Source: Acidimicrobiia bacterium
Lineage (GTDB): Bacteria > Actinomycetota > Acidimicrobiia > IMCC26256 > JBMOIJ01
Assembly (NCBI GenBank): GCA_049317385.1
Contig: JBMOIJ010000002.1
Coordinates: 76,581-140,580 of the forward strand
DNA length: 64,000 nucleotides
Reading direction: 5' to 3'
Below are positions 2,337 through 26,003 of the stretch, piece after piece. Below the pieces are notes generated by a model. It was not told the DNA's origin. It saw only the letters and a list, made by a program, of their open reading frames with translations, and searched no databases. Numbering within the stretch: position 1 is the first letter of the stretch; the number at the start of each line of letters is the position of its first letter. Both the position numbers and the translations under genes were made by a program.

Positions 2337-2981
2337 CTACTGCGGAGCGTTCACGTACACCACGTTCACGCGGTCGAAGCCGGCAGCTCGCATGAGCCCC
2401 GAGAGCATCGCAGTGGTGTTCGCTTCCGCCTTGGCCTGGAGGTCGCTGCTCGCCGCCGCCGCAGTCATCTTTGCCTCGGCGGCGCGATACAGCTCGGCGT
2501 CGTTGGTCGGGTTGTTGGACACGAAGTCGCCGATTCGGTTGAGGAGGCCCCGGTCGCGGTTGATCACCTCGGACTGCCCCTGATCGATGACCGCGTCACC
2601 GACCTGCGCGTGCGGCAGCCGAATCGTGACGGTATTCCCTTCCACCGTGATGTCGCCCGCCTGGAGCGACGAGAAGTCCACATAGGCGGGAACGTCGCCC
2701 ACCGCTTTGAGCTGCGCACGTTCCCCGGCGATCGATGCCGGGACTCGATCGACCGAGTGCTGCACGTCGACGATTTCTTCGAAGTTCGCCTTCGCCGCCT
2801 CGTAACGCGACAGGTTCTCGAGTCGGGTCAGCAAGGCCGGCGCGCTCTTGTCGGTGGTGCGCTCCGCAAACGGGTTGGCGTAGGTGAACCAGAGCCCCAC
2901 CCCCGCGGTCACCAGCACTGCGGTCGCCAACGCGAAGATCAGGACGAGTCCCAGCGGGTTCCGGCTGCGCGCACGCTTCAT
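2337..2981 (-). CDS. membrane-anchored DUF4230-like protein
   Basis: The ATG at 2981 is preceded by GAGGAAG. An N-terminal TM helix LGLVLIFALATAVLVTAGVGLWF is followed by a soluble domain. The track ORF start at 3035 is a TTG without an RBS. Confidence 0.5.
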   Translation of the reverse strand: MKRARSRNPLGLVLIFALATAVLVTAGVGLWFTYANPFAERTTDKSAPALLTRLENLSRYEAAKANFEEIVDVQHSVDRVPASIAGERAQLKAVGDVPAYVDFSSLQAGDITVEGNTVTIRLPHAQVGDAVIDQGQSEVINRDRGLLNRIGDFVSNNPTNDAELYRAAEAKMTAAAASSDLQAKAEANTTAMLSGLMRAAGFDRVNVVYVNAPQ

Positions 2982-3095
2982 CGTTGCCACGAGCTTCCTC
3001 GACTTCTGGGCACTGGTGTGCCCTGCCCTCTTCAACGGTGCGGGGCACCAGAAAGTTCCCGACTGCGGCCGGGGGCACCCCAGCCGGGAACTCGT

Positions 3096-4001
3096 TCAGC
3101 CCGCCAGCTGTTGGAGGGTCGCCTTGGCGGAGTTGATCGAGATGGCGAAGCCGATGTTGTTCGCCGCCTGGTTCTGGCTCGACGCGGCCACCATCGTGTT
3201 GATGCCGATCACCTGGCCAGCGGCATTCACCAACGGGCCACCCGAGTTGCCCGAGGAGATTGCGGCATCGATCTGGATCATTCCGGTCATCGTGCCGTTC
3301 TCGCCTTCCACCGATCGGTTCAGCGCCGAGACGATGCCGCGGGTCACGGTGGGGCTCCCTTCGAGCGCAAGCGCGTCACCGATGGCGATCACGTCATCGC
3401 CCACGTGTACACCGTCAGAGTTTCCGAGCGTCGCCGGATGCAGGTTGGCCGGCCCGCTGAGTTCCACCAAGGCGATGTCGGCCGCCTTGTCGGCGGCCAC
3501 GACGCGTGCGGCGCGGGGCGTCCGCTCCCCTGCCACCGCGACCTGCACGGTCTGCGCGCCGTTCACCACGTGCGCGTTGGTGAGCACCTTGCCGTCGCTC
3601 GAGATGATCACGCCGGTACCCACGGCCGTCCCGCGCTGGGCTCGAAAACCCTCGCGCTCGACCACTTGCGCCGTGATCTCGACCACGGACCGCCCGACGG
3701 TCTGCAACACCGCACCCACGTTCATCGCCCCCGACGCCACCACTGGCGTGGCCGGCTCGCCGGTGGCCTCCGGCGCAGCGGCGGTGGTGGCCGGGAGATC
3801 TGCACGCGTCGCCACTGCGCCCACCACGCCACCGCCAACCGCAGCCACTGCGATCGCCGCGCTCACTGCGATTGCCCGCGCGGCCGTGCCGGCGCGCGAC
3901 CGCCGGGCCCGCGCCGGCGCTGGTGCCGGCGCAGGGTCGATGGGCGCGGTGGGGGGCGAGGGCGTCCAGTAGGGCGAACCGGTGGGCGGGCTGGTGAACA
4001 T
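3096..4001 (-). CDS. secreted trypsin-like (S1C/HtrA-type) serine protease, no PDZ domain
   Basis: The catalytic triad context is TNAHVV, DIALVEL and GNSGGPLV. The ATG at 4001 is preceded by GGAGGAG. The N-terminus is Pro/Ala-rich with a hydrophobic anchor. Confidence 0.8.
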   Translation of the reverse strand: MFTSPPTGSPYWTPSPPTAPIDPAPAPAPARARRSRAGTAARAIAVSAAIAVAAVGGGVVGAVATRADLPATTAAAPEATGEPATPVVASGAMNVGAVLQTVGRSVVEITAQVVEREGFRAQRGTAVGTGVIISSDGKVLTNAHVVNGAQTVQVAVAGERTPRAARVVAADKAADIALVELSGPANLHPATLGNSDGVHVGDDVIAIGDALALEGSPTVTRGIVSALNRSVEGENGTMTGMIQIDAAISSGNSGGPLVNAAGQVIGINTMVAASSQNQAANNIGFAISINSAKATLQQLAG

Positions 4002-7493: not shown

Positions 7494-8176
7494 ACGGGGC
7501 CCTTCACCACGTGCAACCCGCACTCGGTCTTGTCGAGACCCGCCCACCGGCCGGCCCGACGGTCTTCGCCCGGCGCCACCGGACGGGTGCAGGGCCAACA
7601 ACCGATGGATGCGTACCCACGATCCGTGAGCGGATGGCGCAGCAACTGGTGCGCGTCGATGTAGTTGTCAATGTCCTGGTCGGTCCATGCCGCCAGCGGG
7701 TTCACCTTCACCACGTCGCGCGCGACGTCGAACTCGATGACCGGCGCGTGCGCGCGCGTGGGGGCATCGGCGCGCCGTATGCCGGTGATCCAGGCGTCCT
7801 TCTCGGCCAACACCCGGTTGAGCGGCTCGACCTTGCGCACGCCGCAGCAGCCCTCGACGTCGTGTTGCCAGCGATTGTCGCGGACGACGCGGGGATCGGG
7901 GGTCACAACGCGCAGATTGAGCTGGTAGCGCTGGCGCAGCGCTTCGGCATACCACTCGGTCTCGGCGAACAGGTACTGCGTGTCGAGCAACACCACGTCG
8001 AGTGTGGGCGCCACCTGCGCCACCACGTCGATGAGCGCAGCGTCTTCGAAGCTGGCGGTGAAGACGACCCCATCGCCATAGGTGGCAACCGCCCACTCCA
8101 CGATTGCGGCGGCACCCCGCGGCTCGAGTTCGGCGGCGAGCGCCGGGATCTGGTCAGCAGTGGGACGATCGGTCAC
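7490..8176 (-). CDS. cysH: adenylyl-sulfate (APS)/PAPS reductase, thioredoxin-dependent, with Fe-S cysteine motifs
   Basis: Motifs are EGCCGVRKVEPL, SIGCWPCT and KTECGLH. The GTG start at 8176 is inferred from the usual N-terminal length. The CC...CxxC pattern is typical of APS-type enzymes. Confidence 0.85.
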   Translation of the reverse strand: MTDRPTADQIPALAAELEPRGAAAIVEWAVATYGDGVVFTASFEDAALIDVVAQVAPTLDVVLLDTQYLFAETEWYAEALRQRYQLNLRVVTPDPRVVRDNRWQHDVEGCCGVRKVEPLNRVLAEKDAWITGIRRADAPTRAHAPVIEFDVARDVVKVNPLAAWTDQDIDNYIDAHQLLRHPLTDRGYASIGCWPCTRPVAPGEDRRAGRWAGLDKTECGLHVVKGPV

Positions 8177-8209
8177 ACGGCAACCAGGGAACGCAGAAGA
8201 CTGGGGGGC

Positions 8210-8632
8210 ATGGCGCCCAAATCTACGAAACCCGACCGATACTCTCAAGATTCGCCGGCTCCGGCGGTCGTCGTGCGGTCGTCGCCCCGCCATGGACGCG
8301 GCGTGTTCACCACCCGAAAGGTGGCCGCCGGGGAGTTCCTCGACGCCAGCCCCGTGCTGTTCCTAAGTGCCGACGACGGCGACCACATCATGGCGACCCC
8401 GCTGCGCAACTACATCTTCGAGATCGACGACCGCTATGCCCTGGCCTGCGGGCCCGCCTCGTTCCTCAACCACTCCTACGCCCCCAACGCCGAGTACGTG
8501 ATCGACCTCGACGCGTCCATCCTCGAACTCCTGGCGCTCGAACCCATCCCAGCCGGGAGCGAGGTCCTCATCAACTACAACGGATCGCCCAACGATCACG
8601 CTCCGCTGTGGTTCGACCTCGCCCAGGAGTGA
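8210..8632 (+). CDS. SET-domain protein (putative lysine methyltransferase)
   Basis: ATG at 8210. SET signatures are GRGVFTT, FLNHSYAPNAEY and EVLINYNG. Only the last 140 aa of track ORF 7511..8632 are coding; the rest is antisense to cysH. Confidence 0.7.
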   Translation: MAPKSTKPDRYSQDSPAPAVVVRSSPRHGRGVFTTRKVAAGEFLDASPVLFLSADDGDHIMATPLRNYIFEIDDRYALACGPASFLNHSYAPNAEYVIDLDASILELLALEPIPAGSEVLINYNGSPNDHAPLWFDLAQE

Positions 8633-8715
8633 GTTCGCCCCTCGGGGGCCAGGTTTGGGATTCGAGACCGGCGGGCACCGTTTGCATTGTGAACGCGGCC
8701 GAAGGAACGCCCCGC

Positions 8716-9030
8716 ATGGGGAGCACAGACGCGCCAAATCCCCCGCCGTCGGCGGACGCTGTCCTCGAAACCGTCGAGGTCTCAGGTGACCTCGACTTTC
8801 ACACGGCTGATTCGTTCCGTGACCGGCTCTTCACCGCAATTGACCGGTCCAGCGCGGTCGTTCTCGATGCCCACGCGCTCGATTTCATCGACTCGTCCGG
8901 CTTGAGCGTCATCCTGAGCGCACGCCGCCGGGCCGACGAGCGCGGCACACGGTTCCACATCGATGGGCTCCACCCGCGGTTCATGCGCTTGCTCGAGATC
9001 ACCGGCATCGGGTCACTCATCTCGGACTGA
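8716..9030 (+). CDS. STAS-domain anti-sigma-factor antagonist
   Basis: ATG at 8716. The phosphorylatable-serine context is LDFIDSSGLSVIL, and the protein is about 104 aa. Confidence 0.8.
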   Translation: MGSTDAPNPPPSADAVLETVEVSGDLDFHTADSFRDRLFTAIDRSSAVVLDAHALDFIDSSGLSVILSARRRADERGTRFHIDGLHPRFMRLLEITGIGSLISD

Positions 9031-9161
9031 CGCGTCCAGTTCGTGACCGACGGGCGCATGACTCAGGATCGACAAGATCAGATCTTGACAAGCATCCGAA
9101 CTGCGATCACCGCATTGGTCAACGCCACTGCGCCGCTCGACGGGCTCGGTAGCGATCGCCT

Positions 9162-11771
9162 CTAGTGCGCCGAGTCACTCGCGTCGGCCGTTCCGATCGC
9201 GAAGTCCACGATGACCGTGGTGCCGTTGGGGCCAGCGTGAAGGGTGCGCCGCGACGAAAGGTTCTCCGCCAGCACGGTGCCGCGCCCACGCGGCGACTCC
9301 GACCCCGGGGCCGGACGCCGCTTGGTCCTCCAACGTCCGCTGTCGCGAACCTCGATTCGCACGTGATCGGCGTGGATACGTCCCGCCACGTACACGGCCG
9401 TGCCACCGTGCTCGATTCCGTTGGCAACAAGTTCATTCGTGGTCAACACGATGTCGTCGGTGAGTTGCGCACCGAGTGATCCCGCCTGACACCACGCGGT
9501 CACGGTGGCGCGCAATTCCTTCAACTCCGCGAAATCAGGAGCAACTCGTAGGTCGAATGCCGTCTGCGAGTTGGCGCGCGCAAATATGACGAGTGCCACG
9601 TCGTCGACTGCCGCAGTGGAGGCAGTCATGGTGTCGAGCACCTGGTCAGCAGCCATCTCGACATCGGCGGACGCCTCCTCGAACGCCGCAACAAGATCTG
9701 CAATTCGGTCGTCGATGAGCGTGCCCCGACGCTCGAACAGCCCGTCGGTGCAGAGCAAGACCTGCTCACCGCGTTCGAGCACGAACTCGTCTTCCGAGTA
9801 CTGGGCGTTGCCAATCGCGCCGATGGGTGGGCCACTGGCCCCTTCGATCAATCGGCAGGTGCGGCCGCTGTGCACCACTGGCGGCAAGTGGCCGGCCCGC
9901 GCGTACACGCACCGACCGGTGGCGGGGTCGAGCACCGCCACAATGGCCGTGGCCATCGCGCGGTCGGTTCGACCGTGGGCGAACTCGTTGGCAGAGGCAA
10001 GAATCTCCCCCGGGCTCGCGCCAGTAATGGCCTGCATCTCGATGACGGTGCGGAACCGACCCATCGTCGCCGCTGCGTGAGCGCCGTGCCCCACGACGTC
10101 ACCGATCACCAACATCACGCGGCCGTCGGGCAGCACCACCGTGTCGTACCAGTCGCCACCCACCTGGACGTCGACGGCACCCGGGACGTACCGCACGGCG
10201 ACGTCGACGGTGCAGAGGCGCGGCAGTTCGTCGGGGAGCAAGGCGCGTTGCAGGTGTTCGGCGGTGGCCCGCTGCCGTTCGAAGCGAATTGCGTTCGCCA
10301 TCCAGGCACTGACCCTTCGCCCCACCTCCTCGGCCATCGGGATGTCTTCGACGGTGTAGCTCCGCCCACTGTCGGCAAAGCCGAGCGCCAACACTCCGCG
10401 CACCTCTCCGCTGTCGAGGAGCGGCACAGCAATGAGGCTTTTGACGCCCCACAAACGCGCAATCGCACCCTCCTGGAGGTTCCGAGCGATCCGATCCACC
10501 GCCTCAGTGGTGAACCGTTCGATGAGCACGGGTTCTTGGGTGCGGGCGGCGACGGCTGCGGGGGTGTCGTCGTTGATGGACCGGCTGGGCCACGGACCGT
10601 ACTGATTCCGGAACTGATCCTGCTCCGCGTTCAGCGAAGTCGCGTTGAGCAACGACACGCGCTCGCCATCGACCCGGAAGATCGCACAGACGTCGGCGAG
10701 GTCCGGAAGTAAGATGCGGGGCAACGTATAGAACCTCGACCGCACGTCGAGTTCCACTCCCACCATCTCACCCAGACGCGCCAAGATCTGCATGCGCTCG
10801 CGCGCTCGCGCCGCCTCGGCGCGGAGACGGTCACGCTCCAGGTAGTCGGACACCCGCCGACCAACCTGCTCGACGAGCGTCGTCACCGAATCGCTGTAAC
10901 GACGTTCCGACACATGCGTGTAGGCCAACGACATGAGGCCCAGGATGTGGTCGCCGAAGATGAGCGGAACGAGGAACACCGACTGCGCGCCCACCTCGCG
11001 CTGCACCGTGACCGCTGCGGGATCGGCACGGGCAGTGAAGCCGACGCTGGCCGCCATCTCTTCGGTCACCACGTCGATCAGCTGCGTCTTTCGGCCAATC
11101 GCCTCGACGACGGCGCGTTCGCTCCCCGTGGGCACAGCCCGACGCCCAAGTGTGCGCAACCGAGTCGCCGTGTCCGGATCGACGTGGGCAAACGCCACCA
11201 CCGGAGAATCGGCCACCGCGATGCTGCACAGGTCTCCGAACGTGGGGATCATTGCGTTGGCAATGGTTTGGAGGCCCCGTTCGATCTCGATCGAAGGCTC
11301 GGACAGCACCGAGGTGATGCGGGCCAGGAACCGCCACGCCAACTTGGCCTGCACGACCGACGTGGTGTTCTCGATGATCGCCCCGATGCCATACGGCGGC
11401 CCGTCGCCCACTGGGAAGACTGACCCCTGCCAGTGACGTTCGTATCGAGCGTCGGGGGTGAGCCCCGAGGACGACAGGCCGGTCTCGGCCACCCCGGTGT
11501 CGCGCACCCGTCGAAACGTCTCGGCAACCCGACCCCACAAGTTGGGGGCGAACGATTCCAACGTCCGCCCGACCACGGCCGCCGGGTCGTAGTCGGCGGC
11601 AATGACCTCGGGGTCCGAGATTGCAAGCAACCGGAACTCGGAGTCGAAGAACGCTATTGCAACCGGCGCATGGTGCAAGAGCGCGTCGACCTGGTCAGCG
11701 GGATCGTACGCGGAGCGGTCGGCCACGCCCCCACGGTAGGACGAGGGCGAACTCGCGCGGGACTCTCCCAA
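9162..11771 (-). CDS. PAS/GAF sensor fused to a PP2C (SpoIIE) phosphatase and a C-terminal RsbW-like HATPase kinase domain
   Basis: The PP2C core is GGDWYDTVVLPDGRVMLVIGDVVGHGAHAAATMGRF and LLCTDGLFE. The C-terminal ATPase motifs are TNELVANGIEHG and RGRGTVL. Confidence 0.8.
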   Translation of the reverse strand: MGESRASSPSSYRGGVADRSAYDPADQVDALLHHAPVAIAFFDSEFRLLAISDPEVIAADYDPAAVVGRTLESFAPNLWGRVAETFRRVRDTGVAETGLSSSGLTPDARYERHWQGSVFPVGDGPPYGIGAIIENTTSVVQAKLAWRFLARITSVLSEPSIEIERGLQTIANAMIPTFGDLCSIAVADSPVVAFAHVDPDTATRLRTLGRRAVPTGSERAVVEAIGRKTQLIDVVTEEMAASVGFTARADPAAVTVQREVGAQSVFLVPLIFGDHILGLMSLAYTHVSERRYSDSVTTLVEQVGRRVSDYLERDRLRAEAARARERMQILARLGEMVGVELDVRSRFYTLPRILLPDLADVCAIFRVDGERVSLLNATSLNAEQDQFRNQYGPWPSRSINDDTPAAVAARTQEPVLIERFTTEAVDRIARNLQEGAIARLWGVKSLIAVPLLDSGEVRGVLALGFADSGRSYTVEDIPMAEEVGRRVSAWMANAIRFERQRATAEHLQRALLPDELPRLCTVDVAVRYVPGAVDVQVGGDWYDTVVLPDGRVMLVIGDVVGHGAHAAATMGRFRTVIEMQAITGASPGEILASANEFAHGRTDRAMATAIVAVLDPATGRCVYARAGHLPPVVHSGRTCRLIEGASGPPIGAIGNAQYSEDEFVLERGEQVLLCTDGLFERRGTLIDDRIADLVAAFEEASADVEMAADQVLDTMTASTAAVDDVALVIFARANSQTAFDLRVAPDFAELKELRATVTAWCQAGSLGAQLTDDIVLTTNELVANGIEHGGTAVYVAGRIHADHVRIEVRDSGRWRTKRRPAPGSESPRGRGTVLAENLSSRRTLHAGPNGTTVIVDFAIGTADASDSAH

Positions 11772-16740: not shown

Positions 16741-16765
16741 GTTCGGCCACCTACAGTCCGTGCCC

Positions 16766-18664
16766 ATGACTCGCTCGTTCCGCTTCCTCACGCTGTCGTT
16801 GCTCGTTGCGGTCACGTTGACGGCATGTAGTAGCAACAACGGCTCGAAGCAGAGCAACGCACCGAAGGGCACGCCCGTCAGCTTCGACGGCAAACAGGAA
16901 TCGTCCATCCCGCTGGTACGTGTCGCCAACGCCGGCTCCGACGGGGGTCGACTCACCAAAGACCCGGCATTGCAGGTCTTCGCGTGGCAGTACGGCCCGG
17001 TCCCCGGCGTTCAGACGCCCGCCGGCAACCCGGGCGTGCGCGCCAGCGGCAGCCTCGCGCTCTACAGCGTGTTGCGGTACTGGAACGAACTCAGCGACGC
17101 ACAGCGGGCTGCCATCCGCCCGCTGGCCGGGCTGCCCGACGACTACGCGCCAACCGCCGGCCAGTTCGGAAAGAGTCGGCCGGCGCGCCGCGCCGCACCC
17201 ACACCGGTCAAGGCGTTCGAAGCAGAGCTCGCACGCGTGCGGGGCGAGATCGAGCCTCGGCTCGGAACCCTGAGCTTCCCGATCTTCGTGACCAAGGAAT
17301 CGGTCAACTTGAGCACCGAGGCCGACGCGCTCGCCGATGCGCTCGTACGCGGTGGCGTGTTCGGCACTGGCTGTTACATCCGCATGTTCCCCGGCTCCGA
17401 TGCAAGCAAGAGCACGCTCTTTTCCGTCCTCGGTCACGAAGTCATGCACTGTTACCAATTCGAATGGGGCCCGATCCTCGAAGGCTGGATCACCGAAGGT
17501 CAAGCCGAATGGGTGGGAGCCGTGGTCGGGAAGGCGCTGACGGGAGGGTCCGACCCGAACGCAGCTGGATGGGTCGAGAGCTATTACGAGACCCCGGGGA
17601 CGGCACTCTTCAAGCGCACGTACGACGCCGTCGGCTGGTGGATGCACCTCAACCAGTCCGGCGTGAACGTGTGGTCACGTTTGAAGAGCGTTGTCGAAGC
17701 CGGGGGTGGCGACGCGTCGTTCGCGGTCGCCACCGCAGGCGCCGACGAGACGTTGTTGCGTGAGTGGGGCTCGCGCGGCACCGGGTTGCGCCAGCTCGGT
17801 GGGTCGTGGTTCCTCTCGGGCCCCGGCGCCCCCGACGCGACAGGCCCTGGTGTGGGCTTCAACACCGTGTCCAACACCACGGGAGTCACCCGAACGATCG
17901 TCCCTTACTCCGCAGCGTACGGCGGGGTCGACTTCACTGCCGACCTCGTCGAGTTCTCGTACACCGGCAACGTGCAAGGACTGCTGCGAAAGAACGGCCA
18001 ACGCACCTTGGTGGGCCTCGACAACAAGAAGTGGTGCACCAAAGGCGCGAACGATTGCGTGTGCCCGCCCAACACCAAGTCTGCGGGCGAGCGATTCGAC
18101 ACGCTGCCGGGCGGCAAGCACGAGATCGCATTCACGGGCGGACCCGAGTCGGTCACGGTCACCATCACCGGCAAGTCGCTGAAAGACGCGTGCGACGGCG
18201 TGTGCATGGTGGGGACATGGCGACTGAACGGCCCCCCGACCGGATCGGGGCTGAGCTTCAAGTCGGGCGGCACCGGCGCCATCTTGAAGGTTGGTGAAGA
18301 CGGAGTGACCACCTACGACTTCACACCATCGGAGCCCGTCGTGCTCGACACCGGCGGCGGCGAGTTCAGCATCAAGTACAGCGGCGTTGGCAAGGCGCTC
18401 GCGCTGCTCCCGACGGATCCCAACGGCGGTTCGGCGTCGTTCACCGGCATCGACACCACTGGCATCACTGCTGAGGACATCACGATCGACGGGAAGAGCT
18501 CGCTCGACGGGTTGCCCACGAGCCTCATCGCCGACGCGGTGACCAAGGAGTTCCGCAAGTCAATCTTCATCGAAGACGCGAGCTTCACTGCATCGTGCCC
18601 CGGCAATCAGCTCGTGATCTCGAACAGCGTGGTGACGCTCAACTACACGAAGGTCGGCAAGTAG
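16766..18664 (+). CDS. secreted lipoprotein with an HExxH zinc-metalloprotease-like motif
   Basis: The signal/lipobox is FLTLSLLVAVTLTACSS. An HEVMH motif is present, and the C-terminal region is Cys-containing. No closer family is recognised. Confidence 0.55.
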   Translation: MTRSFRFLTLSLLVAVTLTACSSNNGSKQSNAPKGTPVSFDGKQESSIPLVRVANAGSDGGRLTKDPALQVFAWQYGPVPGVQTPAGNPGVRASGSLALYSVLRYWNELSDAQRAAIRPLAGLPDDYAPTAGQFGKSRPARRAAPTPVKAFEAELARVRGEIEPRLGTLSFPIFVTKESVNLSTEADALADALVRGGVFGTGCYIRMFPGSDASKSTLFSVLGHEVMHCYQFEWGPILEGWITEGQAEWVGAVVGKALTGGSDPNAAGWVESYYETPGTALFKRTYDAVGWWMHLNQSGVNVWSRLKSVVEAGGGDASFAVATAGADETLLREWGSRGTGLRQLGGSWFLSGPGAPDATGPGVGFNTVSNTTGVTRTIVPYSAAYGGVDFTADLVEFSYTGNVQGLLRKNGQRTLVGLDNKKWCTKGANDCVCPPNTKSAGERFDTLPGGKHEIAFTGGPESVTVTITGKSLKDACDGVCMVGTWRLNGPPTGSGLSFKSGGTGAILKVGEDGVTTYDFTPSEPVVLDTGGGEFSIKYSGVGKALALLPTDPNGGSASFTGIDTTGITAEDITIDGKSSLDGLPTSLIADAVTKEFRKSIFIEDASFTASCPGNQLVISNSVVTLNYTKVGK

Positions 18665-18811
18665 CGGGCGAGCAGCGCTCGGGGCGGCCAGCGCCAAGAC
18701 GGCCTTAACGAATAGGCCTTGTGGAGCGTCGACATTCGTAAGACAGTGGGGTTCCCCGTACTAAAGGAACCTTCCTTGCCCGCACCTCGGCACGGTCTAC
18801 CCGCCATGCAC

Positions 18812-18912
18812 GCGCAAGCGCCGCCCGAAGGCGGCGCTCACTAGGTTACCCCGCAGGGCATTGCCTACGAATTTGGAATCTTGTCGGAGCAAGACACCAA
18901 TTCGGGTTTAGT
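18812..18912 (-). ncRNA. tracrRNA (anti-repeat plus structured tail)
   Basis: Positions 18883-18912 are complementary to the repeat at 28 of 30 positions. Both mismatches become G:U wobbles only if crRNA and tracrRNA are minus-strand transcripts. The tail begins AAGAUUCC and ends in a perfect 8-bp GC hairpin with a UUCG loop (18818-18837). The exact ends are uncertain. Confidence 0.65.
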
Positions 18913-18919
18913 GCTCTCT

Positions 18920-18948
18920 GTTCTAACAGCAACACCCCGTTCAAGCAA
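18920..18948 (-). promoter_or_regulatory. putative tracrRNA promoter (TTGCTT - 17 nt - TAGAAC)
   Basis: On the minus strand the -35-like TTGCTT lies at 18948-18943 and the -10-like TAGAAC at 18925-18920. This places a start about 7 nt downstream, where anti-repeat complementarity begins. Confidence 0.35.
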
Positions 18949-19019
18949 GGCTGCACCGGGCGCATGAGCCACAACGAATTGGCGCCCCAAAATCCATGTC
19001 GTCGGAAGGATGCACTGCA

Positions 19020-21992
19020 ATGAAGCGCGTACTCGGACTCGACCTCGGCACCAACTCCATTGGCTGGGCCATTGTCGACGTTCCCGATTCCGATGACGAG
19101 GACGGCGATGTCGTAGCGATGGGGTCACGCATCTTCCCCGCGGGCGCAGAGATCGCAGGATCCAAGACGGAAACACGAGCGAAGGCGCGTCGCATGAAGC
19201 GTGCAATGCGCCGACAAATTGCGCGCCGCTCTCGCCGACGTCAAACCCTTGCCCGCGAACTAGCGCAGGTCGGCCTTCTGCCTGCGAACGATTCGGAATT
19301 CCAAGAACTGATGTCCCAGCAACCCGGCGAGCTACTCGATCGCGCACTGGCCGGCGGTGCGCTCACTGCGCATCAGGTTGGAAGAGTGCTTTATTGGTTT
19401 GCTTCGCGACGAGGGTTTCTCTCGCTGCGCGCTGGCGGGTCGCAGATGGTCGATGGAGACAGCGGGTTCACGCCGGCTCGTTTTCGCCTCTCTCAGTTCG
19501 ATGGCGAGACAGGTGAGCGTGTTCACCAAGGCCAAGAGGACCTCGTCATTGAGTTCGTCCGGTCTCAGATGCCCCATCACCCGGACCTCATCACCGAACA
19601 ACTGCTCTTTGGCACTCAGGGCCGTCAGCAATACCCGGTTCGCCCAATCAAGCGAATTGAGACCGACCCCAAGGATGGCTCAATCCAACGGTTCGGAATA
19701 CATGGTCTGCTGTTCTTCCAACGCAAGGTCTATTGGGACCAAGGAACAGTCGGGCACTGTTCGCTCGATCTAGATTCCCGACAGCGGCGAGCAGCTCGCG
19801 CTGAGCGAATGGCTCAACGCTTCAACGTTTGGCAGACCGTCGTGAACGTGCGTGTGGGCGAGGACCAACGCAGTCTCGCTCTTGCCGAGCGCGCACGGCT
19901 CTTCGATGCGCTCTGGTCGAAGAAGACCATGACCTTCGGCGCAATGCGGAAGCTGCTGAGCCTCAGCCCCGAGACCGCGATCAATTTCGAGCAGGACGAA
20001 ATCAAAGGCTTGAAGGGGAACCAAACAGATCCAGAGCTCAAGAAGGCCCTGAAGACCGAGTGGGAACTCCTGACGGAGGACGAACGAGACCAACTTGTAT
20101 TCCTCCTACTCGGCACGAGCACGGAAGAAGCGACACGGACGCAGCTCTCGGCACGTTTCCACCTAAGCGACGAGGGGTGCGATGCGGCCCTCAAAGTCAA
20201 ACTGCCCACCGGCCGCATGAACTATGGGCGGCGAACAATCGCTCGTCTACTTGAGACCCTGCCAGAAGCGGCAGATCTCCGAGACGCGATCGTTGCTGCC
20301 GGCTTCAAGCCGCCCGAAGAAGCTGTGGCAGCCAAGTCCACGGATCTCCACAAAGTCACCAATCCCTTGGTTCGTTCAACGCTCACCCAGCTCACCAAGG
20401 TGATTGCTGCGTTGCAGCGGAGCTATGAGCGCGCCGATGGGACTGCATTCGACGCTGTGCGCATCGAATTGTCACGCGATGTTTCTGCCTCCGCAAAGCA
20501 GCGCGAAGCGATGGTCAAACAGCAGAATGAGAATCGCCACTCGCGAGAGGCAGCGGTGAAGCTCATCAGCGAGTTTGCGCCGGGCTCCGAGAACAGTCGC
20601 GACGCGCAGCGAAAGGCTCGTCTCTGGCGCGATCAAGGCGAGCAGTGCCTCTACTGTGGCCAGCCCATCTCAGCAGTTGAGCTGTTTACCAATTCAGTTC
20701 AACTCGACCACATCCTGCCGCTTTCCAAGACCAACAACGACAGCCTCGCCAACGTGGCCGTCGTTCACGCAGTGGAGAACCTGGAAAAGAGCAATCAAAC
20801 CCCGTTCGAATGGGCCGGGCCCGACCGTCATGCGGAGCTCGTCGAGCTAGCGAAGTCGATGCGCCTCTCGCGCGCGAAGATGAACAACCTCAAGACACAG
20901 CATGTTGCACCCGATGCGATCCCATCCTCGCTCTTGGTCCAAACGGGTTACATCAATGCCTTGGCACGGACCGCCGTGCGCGATCAGACCGGCATTGAGC
21001 CCGAAATCTCGCGCGGGCGGCTGACCGCCCAGCTGCTCTACCGCATCGGCCTCAAGAAAGATTCAAGCGACCACCGCCGACACGCTCAGGACGCTGCGAT
21101 CATCGCGATTACGGATACGCGCCTCGCACTGAAGCTCGCCAAGCGATACGCAGCGGAGCGCGACTACGGGAATCAGCGGAGCGATGACTGGGGAGCCTGG
21201 GAACCATGGACCGGCTTCCGGGCGGAGGTGCTCGCCAAGTACGAAACGATCTTCGTTTCGCATCGGCCGAGCCGAAAGGTTCGAGGGCAACTCCACGAAG
21301 AAACGTTCTATGGAAAGGTCACGTCGCCAGGAAGCGATTCACCAACTCTCTATGCGCGGCGGCGCCAGCTCACGGGCGGGCTCACCGGCACCCAGATGGG
21401 GCAGGTAGCCGACCCTGTCGTTCGAAAGGCACTGATCGACAACCTGGCGGAGCGGGGCCTCGCTACTGATGGCGGATTCAGCCTTGATCCGTCGAATCCA
21501 CCCCGCCTCCCTGATGGCACTGGAATCACAAAGGTTCGCTGCCACATGAACATGCCAGCGAACCGGATCATCCGCCCCACCGATCAACCGAGGACGGGCG
21601 TCTCCCTCGCAAACAACCACGTTGCGTACGTGTTCCGAAACGAGAAGACAGGAAAACAGCGCGTGCACGTGGTGGCCCGCCTCGACGCGATCGCGACCCG
21701 CGCGCTTCCTGCACGGAGCGCGGCAGAGAGTGCCCGCGGCGAGGACGAGGAGTTCTTGTACAGCGTGACTGCAGGAGACCTGTTGCTTCTCAAGAACTCC
21801 AGCCCTGCCGAGCAGCTCGTGAGGGTGGCTCGTCTCGACGAGGGCGGAAAGCGCGTTTATGCCTTTCCGGCGAACAAGGCGATCCAGTCGAAAGAGGAGC
21901 GCCTCCTCCTGACTGGGGACCAGCTCGCTGCGCTGGGCGCAGTCAAGGTAACAGTCCCTCCCGATGGCGAACCTCGCCGAGCGAGCGACTAG
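19020..21992 (+). CDS. cas9: Cas9, compact type II-C-like (about 990 aa)
   Basis: RuvC-I is LGLDLGTNSIGWAIV. The Arg-rich bridge helix is RAKARRMKRAMRRQIARRSRRR. RuvC-II is VRIELSRD. HNH is QLDHILPLS...ENLEKSNQTPFEW. RuvC-III is HRRHAQDAAIIAITD. The ATG at 19020 has GGAAGGA 9 nt upstream. An alternative ATG lies at 18996. Confidence 0.95.
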   Translation: MKRVLGLDLGTNSIGWAIVDVPDSDDEDGDVVAMGSRIFPAGAEIAGSKTETRAKARRMKRAMRRQIARRSRRRQTLARELAQVGLLPANDSEFQELMSQQPGELLDRALAGGALTAHQVGRVLYWFASRRGFLSLRAGGSQMVDGDSGFTPARFRLSQFDGETGERVHQGQEDLVIEFVRSQMPHHPDLITEQLLFGTQGRQQYPVRPIKRIETDPKDGSIQRFGIHGLLFFQRKVYWDQGTVGHCSLDLDSRQRRAARAERMAQRFNVWQTVVNVRVGEDQRSLALAERARLFDALWSKKTMTFGAMRKLLSLSPETAINFEQDEIKGLKGNQTDPELKKALKTEWELLTEDERDQLVFLLLGTSTEEATRTQLSARFHLSDEGCDAALKVKLPTGRMNYGRRTIARLLETLPEAADLRDAIVAAGFKPPEEAVAAKSTDLHKVTNPLVRSTLTQLTKVIAALQRSYERADGTAFDAVRIELSRDVSASAKQREAMVKQQNENRHSREAAVKLISEFAPGSENSRDAQRKARLWRDQGEQCLYCGQPISAVELFTNSVQLDHILPLSKTNNDSLANVAVVHAVENLEKSNQTPFEWAGPDRHAELVELAKSMRLSRAKMNNLKTQHVAPDAIPSSLLVQTGYINALARTAVRDQTGIEPEISRGRLTAQLLYRIGLKKDSSDHRRHAQDAAIIAITDTRLALKLAKRYAAERDYGNQRSDDWGAWEPWTGFRAEVLAKYETIFVSHRPSRKVRGQLHEETFYGKVTSPGSDSPTLYARRRQLTGGLTGTQMGQVADPVVRKALIDNLAERGLATDGGFSLDPSNPPRLPDGTGITKVRCHMNMPANRIIRPTDQPRTGVSLANNHVAYVFRNEKTGKQRVHVVARLDAIATRALPARSAAESARGEDEEFLYSVTAGDLLLLKNSSPAEQLVRVARLDEGGKRVYAFPANKAIQSKEERLLLTGDQLAALGAVKVTVPPDGEPRRASD

Positions 21993-21996
21993 AGCG

Positions 21997-22905
21997 ATGG
22001 GCCGAGCAGTGATCCTGAGCGACCGGATTTCCCGGATCGACGTCAGGGATCATCAGCTCCGCGCCTACCCCAGTGACGGAACGGAAGCGAAGTCCGCACC
22101 TTGCGAAGACATCGACCTGCTTGTTCTCGACACCCATCTGCTGATCGGACTCGATTCACACGTTCTTCAGGAACTTGCTGCTGCGCGCTCGGCGATGCTG
22201 GTCACCAATCGTTCGCACATGCCCTGTGGCATCTTCCTGCCGTTCAGCGCGAACCTGGACCATGGGGCAGTCACGACTGCACAGTTCCAGATGAGCGTGC
22301 CGCGCAAGAAGCGGGCATGGCAGCAAATCGTGCGCCGAAAGATCCGCAACCAATCCGCATTGCTCGAACCGGGTAGCGCCGCTTACCGCAGGCTCCGGCT
22401 TCTTTCGGCAGAGGTCCGCTCGGGTGATTCGAGCAATGCCGAAGCACAGGCGGCCCGCACCTATTGGAAAGCGATGCTCCCAAGCGGCGTGCGCCGCAGT
22501 GCACGTTCTCGCCTCGGCGTCAACGCCGCCCTGGATTATGGATACGCAGTGCTTCGGGCGGCACTCGCACGATCCTGCGTATCGGTAGGGCTGCATGTCG
22601 GCCTTCCGCTCTTCCATTCGAACCTGCGAAATCCATTCGCACTCGTCGACGACCTGGTTGAGCCGTGGCGCCCGTTCGTCGACTCACGTGCTCGTTCGCT
22701 CGGCATCGGAGAAGACGACCTACTCGCTCCACACGATAAGGCTGAACTTGTCGGCGTGCTCCACGAGAGAGTGCAGTGCGGAGGAGTCGAGGGCCCTTTG
22801 ACTGAAGCCATGCTGCGCGCTTCGGCGGCGATGAAGCGCTATGCGTTCGGCGAGGCCGACGAGCTGGACTTGCCCGAAAGCCCGCGCCCGCGTGCTCGCG
22901 AGTGA
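21997..22905 (+). CDS. cas1: Cas1 integrase
   Basis: It starts 5 nt after the cas9 stop and is about 302 aa. The Cas1-like C-terminal region contains NAALDYGYAVLRAALARS and LPLFHSNLRNPFALVDDLVEPWRP. Confidence 0.9.
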   Translation: MGRAVILSDRISRIDVRDHQLRAYPSDGTEAKSAPCEDIDLLVLDTHLLIGLDSHVLQELAAARSAMLVTNRSHMPCGIFLPFSANLDHGAVTTAQFQMSVPRKKRAWQQIVRRKIRNQSALLEPGSAAYRRLRLLSAEVRSGDSSNAEAQAARTYWKAMLPSGVRRSARSRLGVNAALDYGYAVLRAALARSCVSVGLHVGLPLFHSNLRNPFALVDDLVEPWRPFVDSRARSLGIGEDDLLAPHDKAELVGVLHERVQCGGVEGPLTEAMLRASAAMKRYAFGEADELDLPESPRPRARE

Positions 22906-23221
22906 GTTCCGCGCCGTGTGGATGCTCGTGATGTTCGACTTGCCAGTCGGTTCCAAACGAGCGAAGACGGACTATCGACGGTTCCGCGACTTCTTACAGG
23001 ACGACGGCTTCGCAATGCTCCAGTACTCGGTGTACGGCCGGCATTGCGCAACGAGAGAAAGTGCCGACGCCCATGCGGCTCGTGTGCGCTTCGCTTTGCC
23101 GCCAGCAGGCGAAGTACGGATCTTGCGGGTAACCGAGGCGCAGTACGCGCGGATGGAAGTCTTCCGAAATTTCGAGCGACGTCACCCGGAACCCGCACCA
23201 GCGGTGCTCGAATTGTGGTGA
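22892..23221 (+). CDS. cas2: Cas2
   Basis: The motifs MLVMFDLPV, YRRFRDFLQDDGFAMLQYSVY and others are typical of Cas2. The start is ambiguous (GTG 22892, GTG 22916 or ATG 22922). It overlaps the cas1 stop. Confidence 0.85.
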   Translation: MLASEFRAVWMLVMFDLPVGSKRAKTDYRRFRDFLQDDGFAMLQYSVYGRHCATRESADAHAARVRFALPPAGEVRILRVTEAQYARMEVFRNFERRHPEPAPAVLELW

Positions 23222-23266
23222 GCGGAACCCCCGCAGCCCCGTGCACTGGGCTTCTCGGCGCTAACG

Positions 23267-24288
23267 GAGGTTACTAAACCCGAATTGGTGTCCTGCCCCG
23301 ACTGAGAAGTCACCTTCGGAATCGTGAGATGTGAGGTTACTAAACCCGAATTGGTGTCCTGCCCCGACTGTCCTCGTACTTCCTGCTGCCATCCGTAGGA
23401 GGTTACTAAACCCGAATTGGTGTCCTGCCCCGACCGTTTTGTTTGCCACACCGCCCACGGGTGGAGGTTACTAAACCCGAATTGGTGTCCTGCCCCGACT
23501 GGGGGATCGTGGATCGCAACGTCGCCGAAGAGGTTACTAAACCCGAATTGGTGTCCTGCCCCGACACGTTTGTTCATCTAGTGCACCAGCGCCCGGAGGT
23601 TACTAAACCCGAATTGGTGTCCTGCCCCGACGGACTACCCAGGAACTGTTGCGGCACCGGTGAGGTTACTAAACCCGAATTGGTGTCCTGCCCCGACCAT
23701 TCAGCTACCGGTTCGCGCGCCTCGTCGAGGTTACTAAACCCGAATTGGTGTCCTGCCCCGACCCCATGCTGGTTGTTGCCGAGAGTAAGGGCGAGGTTAC
23801 TAAAGCCGAATTGGTGTCCTGCCCCGACGCCGGTTTGGGTGAAGGTGGCGCGCGTGCGAGGTTACTAAACCCGAATTGGTGTCCTGCCCCGACTTCCCAG
23901 ATGCGGCCGTATTCGATGAGTTCGAGGTTACTAAACCCGAATTGGTGTCCTGCCCCGACAGCGAGCCCGAAAGTGGCATCGCCAAGCACGGAGGTTACTA
24001 AACCCGAATTGGTGTCCTGCCCCGACAACGGTACCCGTCGGCGGTGTCGACCTTTGAGGTTACTAAACCCGAATTGGTGTCCTGCCCCGACTCCTGTACC
24101 GCGAAGGTGATGCGCTGGCCGAGGTTACTAAACCCGAATTGGTGTCCTGCCCCGACTAAATCTCGACCGTGCCACCATTGCAGACGGAGGTTACTAAACC
24201 CGAATTGGTGTCCTGCCCCGACCGCAGCTGCGGCGGCAGCGACGACCCGGCGGAGGTTACTAAACCCGAATTGGTGTCCTGCCCCGAC
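23267..24288. CRISPR. CRISPR array: 16 repeats of 36 nt (GAGGTTACTAAACCCGAATTGGTGTCCTGCCCCGAC as written on +) and 15 unique spacers of 29-31 nt
   Basis: Each unit was counted by hand. Repeats start at 23267, 23333, 23399, 23464, 23530, 23596, 23662, 23727, 23793, 23858, 23924, 23991, 24056, 24121, 24187 and 24253. Only repeat 9 differs (C to G at 23805). Transcription is inferred to be on the minus strand from tracrRNA pairing. Confidence 0.97.
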
Positions 24289-24312
24289 GTAATTCCCGGG
24301 CTAGCGACTGCT

Positions 24313-25848
24313 CTACCCACCCAGCGGGTCGAACGCCTGCACGCCATTTGTTGCGACGTGCGCAGTCCAAGATGCGCCATCCCAAAATCGGTATTCAAAT
24401 CGTTGGAGTGGGTCTCCGTACCAACCTGCTTCTGGCAGCAACTCGTGCACCACGGGCGCCACATCGCTGCGAGAGTCCACGATCTCGGGCACCGCAAGGC
24501 GCGTGCTTGCGCTTTGATCGGTTGAGCATTCAGCGCATCGAAGATCTTTGCGACGCCTCGCCCCTTCGGTAAGAACAACCGCCTTGCCGCACACCGAACA
24601 GAGTTGGACAGTGCGCGGCCGCATGATGGCAGCTTCGCCTGAAACCTCATCGCCCGTGCGAGCAGCAAGGAACGCTTCCGCACCAACAATCGGTATCCCA
24701 TACTTGCGGGCCTTGGTCGCCTTGACACTTGCGGTCTTTGTATCCCCCGCTACGAGAACATCCGTCGTCTTTGTCACGGAAGGCACGGCGACCATTCGCC
24801 ACTCCCACGCATGCTGCTCAAGGACTTCCCGATCAACAAATTCTCCGTTGATGCAAGCTTCGCCCGTGAAACAAACCCGCATCCCCGCTCGCAGTCGAAC
24901 TGCGACATTCGCCCGTCGCGATTGCTCGGTCTTGCGCACAACGAACTCTGAATCCACATCGAGAAGCTGAGCGAACGCAAGTAGCTGTTCGAAGTCCGAC
25001 CCAGCGAATGAGCCCTGTTCCAAGGCGCGGCTCACCAGCGCGCCTATGAATTGCTGATGAGCCGCATGCTGTTGCGTTCGACTAAGGCCCAGCGCACTCG
25101 CAAGGTCGTCGAGTTGCTCTCGTTCGTCGGGCGTAATACGCCAATCCTCGACGACCTCGGAAACGAGATCCAAATATGGCTGCTCATCGACATCGGCGGC
25201 AGAGATCGATACCAGAACCGGCGCATGAGATAGTCCAGCGCCTACGACAGAACGATCGCGTTCGGCTCGCGGGCATATCGCAGCGGAGCCTGGACCGACC
25301 GCGTCAGCCTGGACGGGAATAACTCCGCCCTCATGGTTAGGTCCGATCAGTTGAAATAGCTGGGCGGTCGCGCGCGCGTCATGGAGCGCTGAATGCCAAC
25401 CCCCAAGACTGATGCCGTAAGCAGAGCATGCAACCTGAAGGTTCTCCCCTGCAATGCGCAACGTGTCGATTCCGCGGCCAAGATCGACAACGGGGGTTAC
25501 AACTCGCTCGAACTCGCAACGCAACATCCGCTCGTCGAACCCGAAGAGGTTATGTGCGACGAGGCAAGCGCCGCGAAGACGCGCCGCGACCTGATCGGCG
25601 ATATCCGAGAACATCGGCGCATTCACCACATCGCTTGCGGTGATCCCGTGGACCTTGGTCGGCCCGACATCACGCCCCGGATTCACAAGTGTCGTCCACT
25701 CGTCGACGACACGCCCCACAAGATCGACGGTGACGATCGCGATTTCGACGACACGATCCTTTGATCGCAGCCCAGTCGTCTCGAGATCGATCACCGCAAA
25801 GCGATCACTGTCCCCAGCAACGTGCTCCAGCGTTCTTGCCGTGTTCAA
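24313..25848 (-). CDS. DEDDh (DnaQ-like) 3'-5' exonuclease fused to a BRCT domain, a Cys4 zinc ribbon and a C-terminal DUF2510-like domain
   Basis: Exo motifs are FAVIDLETTG, LVAHNLFGFDERML and HSALHDARAT. The BRCT-like segment is VCFTGE...DVLVAGD...KARKYGIPIV. The zinc ribbon is CSVCGK...CAEC. The DUF2510-like segment is GWYGDPLQRFEYRFWDGASWT. The start codon is TTG at 25848, with a possible alternative GTG downstream. Confidence 0.8.
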   Translation of the reverse strand: MNTARTLEHVAGDSDRFAVIDLETTGLRSKDRVVEIAIVTVDLVGRVVDEWTTLVNPGRDVGPTKVHGITASDVVNAPMFSDIADQVAARLRGACLVAHNLFGFDERMLRCEFERVVTPVVDLGRGIDTLRIAGENLQVACSAYGISLGGWHSALHDARATAQLFQLIGPNHEGGVIPVQADAVGPGSAAICPRAERDRSVVGAGLSHAPVLVSISAADVDEQPYLDLVSEVVEDWRITPDEREQLDDLASALGLSRTQQHAAHQQFIGALVSRALEQGSFAGSDFEQLLAFAQLLDVDSEFVVRKTEQSRRANVAVRLRAGMRVCFTGEACINGEFVDREVLEQHAWEWRMVAVPSVTKTTDVLVAGDTKTASVKATKARKYGIPIVGAEAFLAARTGDEVSGEAAIMRPRTVQLCSVCGKAVVLTEGARRRKDLRCAECSTDQSASTRLAVPEIVDSRSDVAPVVHELLPEAGWYGDPLQRFEYRFWDGASWTAHVATNGVQAFDPLGG

Positions 25849-26003
25849 CTGGTTGCCCTCGTTCGTGCGACATGCAATCCGGCACGCCCGGTCGTCCGCG
25901 GCGTGACGGAAAGCCTCGCACGTCTGGGAACGGCGTCATCGCGAAGCCACGGGCATCGTTGCAAGTCACCCTTGACGCGCCGAAACGACCACATAGAAGC
26001 GCG

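Follow-up and report, generated by a model that had tools for sequence, protein, structure and literature searches.

An exonuclease-BRCT gene abutting a type II-C CRISPR array in an Acidimicrobiia genome: probably a mobile neighbour of the Cas9 cassette from the candidate defence family PDC-S48

Introduction

Does a gene for a DnaQ-like exonuclease that ends a few nucleotides from a CRISPR array work with the neighbouring Cas9, or do the two only share a piece of acquired DNA? The question is raised by a 64,000-nucleotide (nt) stretch of an Acidimicrobiia genome (GenBank assembly GCA_049317385.1, contig JBMOIJ010000002.1, positions 76,581 to 140,580 of the forward strand), here called the window and numbered from its first letter. 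An initial annotation, made from the letters and open reading frames (ORFs), had drawn attention to a gene on the strand of the CRISPR RNAs (crRNAs), 24 nt from the last repeat, and had offered prespacer trimming, crRNA 3' trimming or the passive presence of a hitch-hiking repair gene as possible roles. The gene and its junction with the array are as follows:

24313-25848, minus strand: exonuclease gene, 511 amino acids (aa) from a TTG start at 25848, a member of the PADLOC candidate family PDC-S48 (ORF, translation and profile match).
24289-24312: gene/array junction, 24 nt, plus-strand sequence GTAATTCCCGGGCTAGCGACTGCT (read from the sequence).

The distance first noted is exact, with the TAG stop at 24313-24315, the outermost repeat ending at 24288 and a gap of exactly 24 nt between them. 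The exonuclease probably belongs to the PDC-S48 family as a DNA 3'-5' exonuclease that acts autonomously and spreads horizontally; it would share a small acquired island, a mini defence island, with the Cas9 cassette and not be a component of the Cas9 system. A mobile neighbour is preferred to a dedicated Cas9 helper because relatives of the protein are almost never found beside CRISPR loci.

Linkage of the exonuclease family to CRISPR loci

The exonuclease family comprises at least 680 clusters, most of its members being 375-415 aa long and covering a core of exonuclease, helical and BRCT domains, and the nearest relatives of the window protein are only 47-50% identical to it. The survey of family members at 31-53% identity covered 80 loci in GTDB species representatives, each taken with flanks of up to 10 kb per side, and none of these 80 loci contained a tblastn match to the window Cas9, Cas1 or Cas2, nor did any contain a CRISPR-like array. 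There were likewise no cas genes or arrays in the six metagenome loci of the nearest homologues, giving 0 of 86 loci linked to CRISPR. The three nearest relatives (P0002-P0004, 47-50% identity) lie on contigs without cas genes or arrays, among neighbours that include a ParB_N protein, a phage integrase and a PIN_4 protein. CRISPR is almost absent beside homologues of the exonuclease.

The same association was surveyed from the side of Cas9. The clade of the window Cas9 consists of ~36 clusters, 42-53% identical, of proteins of ~990-1000 aa. A metagenome scan with the clade alignment, combined with look-ups of long contigs, yielded 79 distinct type II loci with ~450 kb of flank, and two clade contigs were added. 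A tblastn search with the exonuclease found exactly one match, in the locus L097 (one of 81 other type II loci groups). Of the clade loci, ~12 had usable flanks of 3 kb or more; among these the exonuclease was present in the window and in L097 only, the flanks of the others being all unrelated, and a family member was present in none of ~60 more distant type II loci. Nor was there a shared partner upstream of cas9, where the genes of seven clade loci were all mutually unrelated. This neighbourhood survey, with 0 of 80 plus 0 of 6 homologue loci and 1 of 81 other type II loci groups, speaks against the dedicated type II accessory that the initial annotation had proposed. The fallback offered alongside it, a hitch-hiking gene, comes close to the reading favoured here, the homologues being scattered independently of CRISPR.

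The copy in L097 is a 400-aa exonuclease-BRCT protein encoded on the minus strand 1.1 kb upstream of cas9, and a 227-aa ORF and the trans-activating crRNA (tracrRNA) separate its gene from cas9. Its best matches are ~390-aa proteins at ~50% identity, the window protein ranking 90th of 120, and its nearest relative (P0049) has an AAA ATPase and a toxin-antitoxin pair (Phd/ParE) as neighbours and no CRISPR beside it. Because the L097 copy comes from a different subfamily than the window protein, the two juxtapositions are best read, from the sequences compared, as independent events.

Several observations weigh against a purely mobile neighbour. The L097 juxtaposition is a second and independent one, against ~0.03-0.1 expected by chance in the surveyed flanks, a rough estimate that leaves the window out and assumes about one family copy per 3-8 Mb genome. 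One match set against this expectation hints at enrichment and not at a conserved partnership. In addition, nothing but the CRISPR cassette and the exonuclease gene is present in the island, and a spacing of 24 nt from the array, on the crRNA strand, is unusually close. Some neighbourhoods of the family are plainly housekeeping in content, and a literature search turned up no paper naming PDC-S48, which is a candidate defence family by prediction only. Finally, no related genome without the island was found to show whether the exonuclease came with the cassette: the GTDB representatives do not include the species of the window, and the upstream flanking protein (16760-18664) had no homologue but itself in 5.8 billion proteins, leaving no island-free relative for comparison.

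The exonuclease gene and its product

The exonuclease ORF (24313-25848, minus strand) is open over 511 codons by ORF call and translation. Its product matches at 100% identity the NCBI entry 'exonuclease domain-containing protein', encoded on a 173-kb contig of an Acidimicrobiia metagenome-assembled genome, for which the public annotation places the start at GTG 25794 and gives a length of 493 aa. The TTG at 25848 is preceded at 7 nt by the Shine-Dalgarno motif GAGGG, and residues 7-18 are kept among homologues. Because of this motif and of the conserved residues before V19, the 511-aa version fits better than the annotated one.

The gene has a GC content of 0.595 and a GC content at third codon positions (GC3) of 0.61, compared with GC3 of 0.69 in cas9 and cas1 and of 0.80-0.90 in the host genes on either side. 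The lower GC that had been described as common to this gene and the cas genes was correctly read, including the 33 G+C in 60 nt at 25381-25440. The difference in GC3 between the gene and its host surroundings marks the gene as acquired.

The domains of the product, from the N-terminus, are as follows:

25354-25794, minus strand: DnaQ-like DEDDh 3'-5' exonuclease domain, residues 19-165 (Pfam RNase_T, E 1e-19).
24931-25233, minus strand: all-helical middle domain, TerB-like, ~residues 206-306 (helices in the AlphaFold2 model; region conserved in the family).
24664-24915, minus strand: BRCT domain, residues 312-395, with conserved F-T-G and S-x-K positions (profiles).
24526-24600, minus strand: C4 zinc ribbon, C417/C420/C438/C441 (CxxC-x17-CxxC pattern; small beta strands in the model).
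24337-24429, minus strand: DUF2510 module, residues 474-504 (Pfam PF10708, E 1e-8; model confidence low here).

This order is established by the profiles and by an AlphaFold2 model that is confident up to ~residue 448 (mean predicted local distance difference test score 85.8). The sequence of DEDDh, BRCT, zinc ribbon and DUF2510 given in the initial annotation was right as an order and lacked the helical TerB-like domain (~206-306).

The catalytic residues D21, E23, D105, H152 and D157 are invariant across 100 homologues; the DEDDh set is intact in the window protein, which is accordingly predicted to have DNA exonuclease activity. A family profile of the exonuclease domain lies nearest the PolC exonuclease (2p1j, E 4e-29), followed by the DinG exonuclease and the DnaQ epsilon subunit (E 8e-23), and is much more distant from Cas2-DEDDh (E 6e-8) than from PolC, DinG and DnaQ (E 1e-22 to 1e-29). 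Structure is less discriminating than this: the domain matched Escherichia coli epsilon in Foldseek with a template modelling (TM) score of 0.80 and a root-mean-square deviation of 2.0, superposed on Cas2-DEDDh and the S. thermophilus DnaQ domain at TM 0.79-0.80, and was equally like all DnaQ folds in the structure search (TM ~0.8). The PADLOC profile for Cas-associated DEDDh proteins also matches the domain (E 4.9e-32), and homologues without CRISPR score about equally.

Assignment of the remaining domains draws largely on the family. The TerB-type matches are weak and come from homologues only, as PF05099 in P0074 and phrog_632 in the L097 protein. The Pfam BRCT match to the window protein alone is below threshold (E 0.0076); backing comes from PHROG profiles of NAD-ligase BRCT domains (E 3e-10), from LigA BRCT structures with the family profile (E 1e-5), from a BRCT match in the L097 homologue (E 2e-6) and from conservation of F327, T328, G329, S374 and K376 in at least 90% of the family. 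The predicted BRCT domain is therefore weak on the window sequence alone and solid at the family level. The zinc ribbon has no Pfam match, and its cysteines align with the CxxC...CxxC of longer homologues. Two homologues (P0007 and P0026) seem to have a DUF2510-like segment at the N-terminus instead, with a Pfam match in P0007 and the position taken from the alignment. At the extreme C-terminus (...NGVQAFDPLGG) no obvious QLxLF-type clamp motif was seen by eye, no formal motif search having been made.

Family membership and neighbourhoods

The PADLOC model of PDC-S48, a candidate system of one gene (PDLC05027), matches residues 15-395 of the protein over profile positions 4-403 of 411 (E 5.7e-100, 333 bits), and a second model, PDLC05028, matches with E 1.7e-58. 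The fit of PDC-S48 is equally good for P0003, a homologue away from CRISPR (E 5e-105), and for the copy in L097 (E 7e-114). In the preprint by Payne et al. (2024, bioRxiv 10.1101/2024.01.29.577857), the PDC set consists of 145 'phage defence candidates' drawn from genes within BREX, DISARM and type I restriction-modification (R-M) loci, and these are predictions. The profile covers the exonuclease, helical and BRCT domains of the window protein, which resembles the family further in its accessory, mobile genomic behaviour with R-M, BREX and Abi neighbours. It differs in adding the C4 zinc ribbon and the C-terminal DUF2510, both outside the 411-position model, and in its surroundings, since the loci from which PDC families were defined are BREX, DISARM and type I R-M loci and not CRISPR loci. 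The association with defence systems or mobile elements that characterises PDC-S48 takes the form, in the window, of a CRISPR-Cas neighbour. The exonuclease is thus a new member of an already listed candidate family, with a variant C-terminus (zinc ribbon and DUF2510). The view that no such neighbour had been described as a type II accessory needs some qualification, in that the family is already in PADLOC as PDC-S48 and DEDDh genes have been remarked on beside type II-C loci in Bifidobacterium; PADLOC also treats DEDDh as a generic Cas-associated gene.

There was no neighbour family common across genera of the exonuclease homologues, i.e. no conserved synteny. The immediate neighbours in 34 loci (two ORFs to either side) included TrwC relaxase, type I R-M S, R and M subunits (3 loci), BrxC/D, DUF2398, Abi_2, AAA_21, integrases and Uma2, together with some housekeeping genes. 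Among matches on viral contigs, one of 80 had the full architecture and the rest were phage DnaQ-like genes with the exonuclease domain only, so that the family is not typically phage-borne. In two Lentzea loci (L009, 11211-16062; L011, 11173-16012) and one Streptomyces locus (L035, 11651-15496), the homologue was followed by the same two downstream neighbours, of ~1260 aa and ~359 aa. The exonuclease family may be part of a multi-gene cassette in some lineages.

Alternative roles

The exonuclease might instead be a helper in adaptation, trimming in trans the 3' overhangs of prespacers held by Cas1-Cas2 in a system without Cas4 or Csn2. DEDDh trimming, including by unfused nucleases acting in trans, is an accepted model (Wang et al. 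2023, PMC10284694). Prespacers are trimmed in type I-E by Cas2-DEDDh fusions and by host DnaQ or ExoT. The window gene resembles the type I-E Cas2-DEDDh/Cas2-DnaQ trimmer-integrases (8fy9, 8fyc, 8h18) in its DnaQ fold (TM 0.79-0.80), its complete set of DEDDh catalytic residues, its match to the Cas-associated DEDDh profile (E 5e-32) and its place beside an adaptation module without Cas4, abutting the array in the same acquired island; a second clade locus (L097) has a family member beside tracrRNA and cas9, and the Bifidobacterium observation points in the same direction. It differs from them in being unfused to Cas2, outside the cas operon, on the strand opposite to cas1-cas2 and not conserved with cas genes, and in having BRCT, TerB-like and zinc-ribbon parts that are missing from the Cas2 fusions. 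The similarity in sequence is weak (E 6e-8, compared with 4e-29 for PolC), with the domain far nearer PolC, DinG and DnaQ, and non-CRISPR homologues match the Cas DEDDh profile about as well. Of the features of Cas-associated DEDDh proteins, the catalytic motifs and the DnaQ fold were found, but a Cas2 fusion or a position in the cas operon, and recurrent co-occurrence with cas genes, were not. Set beside the absence of CRISPR from all 86 homologue loci, the lack of the exonuclease in ~10 of 12 informative clade loci and in all of the ~60 more distant type II loci, and the differences in subfamily, architecture (400 and 511 aa) and position between the two CRISPR-adjacent copies, these points make an adaptation helper unlikely. 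Were it a genuine type II accessory, the gene would supply the identity of the prespacer-processing nuclease still missing from type II-C, an open question in Cas9 adaptation. We consider it similarly doubtful that exonuclease-BRCT proteins have been repeatedly and independently recruited beside Acidimicrobiia type II-C loci as facultative partners of Cas1-Cas2 or Cas9, the window and L097 being the first trace of this; such partners would take the place that Cas4 or Csn2 occupy in other type II subtypes, either by trimming prespacers or by turning Cas9-cut DNA into prespacer substrates through resection.

A housekeeping replication or repair paralogue, i.e. a DnaQ-BRCT proofreader like mycobacterial DnaQ (Rv3711c) that lies beside the array by chance, is also not probable, if a little less remote. 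The best NCBIfam match is PRK06063 (NF004719), an actinobacterial DEDDh exonuclease (E 1.7e-43), the exonuclease domain is nearest to replicative proofreaders, and the window protein has in common with mycobacterial DnaQ, an actinobacterial exonuclease-BRCT second proofreader (PMC11348249), an N-terminal DnaQ exonuclease followed by BRCT. The match, however, reaches 148.8 bits, far below the PRK06063 equivalog cut-off of 389, and the window protein has in addition a helical insert of ~100 residues between exonuclease and BRCT, as well as the zinc ribbon and DUF2510. Its gene is foreign in composition (GC3 0.61 against 0.80-0.90 in the host) and without conserved synteny, with matches scattered over genera and neighbours that are often mobile-element or defence genes. 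A role in RNA, either with the nuclease trimming the 3' ends of crRNA or tracrRNA or with the gene serving solely as a read-through promoter for the array, is very improbable. The DEDDh superfamily does include RNase T and oligoribonuclease, and the gene is on the crRNA strand with no terminator ahead of the first repeat. The crRNA 3' trimming once suggested for it is nevertheless not a step that type II biogenesis needs, since RNase III makes the 3' end and the trimming that lacks an explanation is at the 5' end, beyond the reach of a 3'-5' exonuclease (PMC5965381). The closest relatives are DNA proofreading exonucleases, the BRCT and LigA-like features point to DNA, every repeat has a -10-like TAnnnT box, and most arrays of the clade exist without an exonuclease gene.

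For a mobile PDC-S48 exonuclease, the preferred reading, a mechanism can be proposed from the parts of the protein. Through its BRCT domain and zinc ribbon the DnaQ-type nuclease would be recruited to DNA ends, to nicks, or to a partner that is a phospho-protein or part of the replisome, there being a precedent in mycobacterial DnaQ, whose BRCT domain is essential for function (PMC11348249). The nuclease might then resect or degrade the 3' ends of invading or damaged DNA, and Cas9 would profit only opportunistically, for instance through degradation of cut targets or through the supply or trimming of prespacers. The locus is a clean natural pairing of a PDC-S48-type exonuclease and a minimal Cas9 system in one small acquired island.

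The type II-C cassette and the island

The dip in GC that contains both systems spans ~18.7-25.9 kb, in the order tracrRNA, cas9, cas1, cas2, array and exonuclease gene. Its features, other than the exonuclease gene, are as follows:

18700-25900: low-GC island, GC 0.604 compared with 0.671 in the rest of the window, with only the CRISPR-Cas cassette and the exonuclease gene, between housekeeping genes.
18800-18925, minus strand: predicted tracrRNA, with anti-repeat at 18912-18883, nexus-like hairpin and terminal GC hairpin GCGCCGCCUUCGGGCGGCGC (ends predicted).
18996-21992, plus strand: cas9, 998 aa, compact type II-C (TIGR01865, E 2.5e-124; HNH_4, Cas9_a and RuvC_III domains).
21964-22905, plus strand: cas1, type II NMENI type (Pfam Cas_Cas1, E 2e-21; TIGR03639, E 3e-59).
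22918-23221, plus strand: cas2 (translation; tblastn to clade cas2, with products matching PF09827).
23267-24288, minus strand (crRNA): CRISPR array, 16 repeats of 36 nt and 15 spacers of ~30 nt, repeat GTCGGGGCAGGACACCAATTCGGGTTTAGTAACCTC.

The cassette consists of cas9, cas1, cas2 and a tracrRNA with anti-repeat, and because csn2 and cas4 are missing, with no further cas gene in the island, the locus is assigned to type II-C. The array has 16 copies of the repeat compared with 0 expected by chance. The anti-repeat and the array repeat form an inverted repeat of 93% over 30 nt, the predicted tracrRNA diverges from cas9, and its stretch folds with a z score of -4.2. An Rfam scan of 15-30 kb found no known RNA family, tracrRNA included. 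The orientation of the anti-repeat (18883-18912) and the hairpins that follow it put both tracrRNA and crRNA, as predicted, on the minus strand, in agreement with the earlier placing of the exonuclease gene on the crRNA strand. The gene runs in the direction of the crRNAs, upstream of them in transcription, and is on the strand opposite to cas9-cas1-cas2. The arrangement is that of the type II-C systems of Neisseria meningitidis and Campylobacter jejuni, i.e. cas9, cas1, cas2 and tracrRNA without csn2 or cas4, and a crRNA strand opposite to the cas operon; the window differs in its distant Acidimicrobiia Cas9 clade of ~990-1000 aa.

The flanks of the island encode a branched-chain amino-acid ABC transporter, a dienelactone hydrolase, an aconitase, a low-molecular-weight phosphatase and an FtsK/SpoIIIE-family ATPase. 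There was no tRNA gene in the window and no integrase domain among the flanking genes scanned.

The related loci yielded some further observations. L097 has the same tracrRNA layout as the window, at ~3205-3310. Its 227-aa ORF (2432-3115, minus strand) has, by eye, a D...E-x-K pattern (IDVVG...AVEVK) and a C-terminal cysteine cluster, resembling a PD-(D/E)xK nuclease; searches of Pfam, PADLOC, PHROGs and PDB sequences gave no match to it, and neither the window nor the other loci searched contained a homologue. In L170, a second Cas1-domain protein of 524 aa (8156-9730) is encoded just upstream of cas9, besides the normal 303-aa cas1 of the cassette.

Transcription of the array and spacer acquisition

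No terminator was found at the gene/array junction, and the fold of 24225-24375 is no more stable than that of shuffled sequences (z -0.54). Read-through from the exonuclease gene into the array is plausible because there is no terminator between the stop codon and the first repeat, and the exonuclease transcript would probably continue into the array with nothing to stop it. A scan for sigma-70-like promoters over 18.4-26.4 kb found none.

A second source of transcripts may lie within the repeats. On the crRNA strand the window repeat reads GTCGGGGCAGG...TAACCTC, with the -10-like box TAACCT at its end. TAnnnT, which is the actinobacterial -10 pattern, stands in crRNA orientation at the 3' end of all nine distinct repeat consensus sequences of the Cas9 clade, these nine coming from seven distinct loci with an array, L096 and the window (arrays of L088, L089, L096, L099, L167, L169, L170 and L171). 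The three inner bases vary (TAACCT, TAAGAT, TAGACT, TACGCT, TACACT) and the T, A and T are constant. Repeat-embedded promoters are established for the type II-C systems of N. meningitidis and C. jejuni (PMC5965381), in which respect the window is alike in having a -10-like box at the 3' end of every repeat and different in that its repeat promoters are read from the motif. The conserved TAnnnT suggests a -10 promoter element within each repeat, and the crRNAs most likely start from the box that ends every repeat, as they do in the Neisseria and Campylobacter type II-C systems. The locus also documents an Acidimicrobiia Cas9 clade with a predicted tracrRNA and conserved -10-like boxes in the repeats.

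Because most arrays of the clade have no such gene upstream and their distal flanks are mutually unrelated, the array appears not to depend on the exonuclease gene for its expression, and read-through is probably not needed. The transcription of the array from the exonuclease gene that had been envisaged is thus possible, given the lack of a terminator at the junction, but unnecessary given the -10-like boxes in the repeats. A conserved leader on the distal side of the arrays of the Cas9 clade was not found, the flanks being unrelated; the arrays abut whatever lies beyond them. For this reason, little can be learned about a leader from the position of the array against the exonuclease gene. 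In L169 (~20351-20480), a 90-repeat array has its distal end within ~40 nt of a stretch that is tRNA-like by eye (GGGGCTGTAGCTCAGCTGG...).

Two pairs of related loci were compared for the polarity of spacer acquisition. L089 and L090 differ only by one internal spacer and one single-nucleotide polymorphism, which gives no indication of polarity. L167 (14262-17077) and L168 (14259-15153) have the same repeats and match at 98.5% identity across 14 kb comprising cas genes and upstream flank, yet none of the 13 cas2-nearest spacers is common to both. Since these near-identical loci share no cas2-nearest spacers, the comparison gives a hint of possible spacer insertion at the end next to cas2, the downstream end of the array in the direction of transcription.

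At that same end, the gap of ~45 nt between the cas2 stop codon and the first repeat (23222-23266 in the window; also L089, L169, L170 and L171) often holds a GC-rich hairpin, such as CTCCCGAATCCCCTGAAATATCAGGGAATTCGGGAG in L169. This hairpin may stop transcription in both directions, that of the cas operon and that of the crRNAs converging on it.

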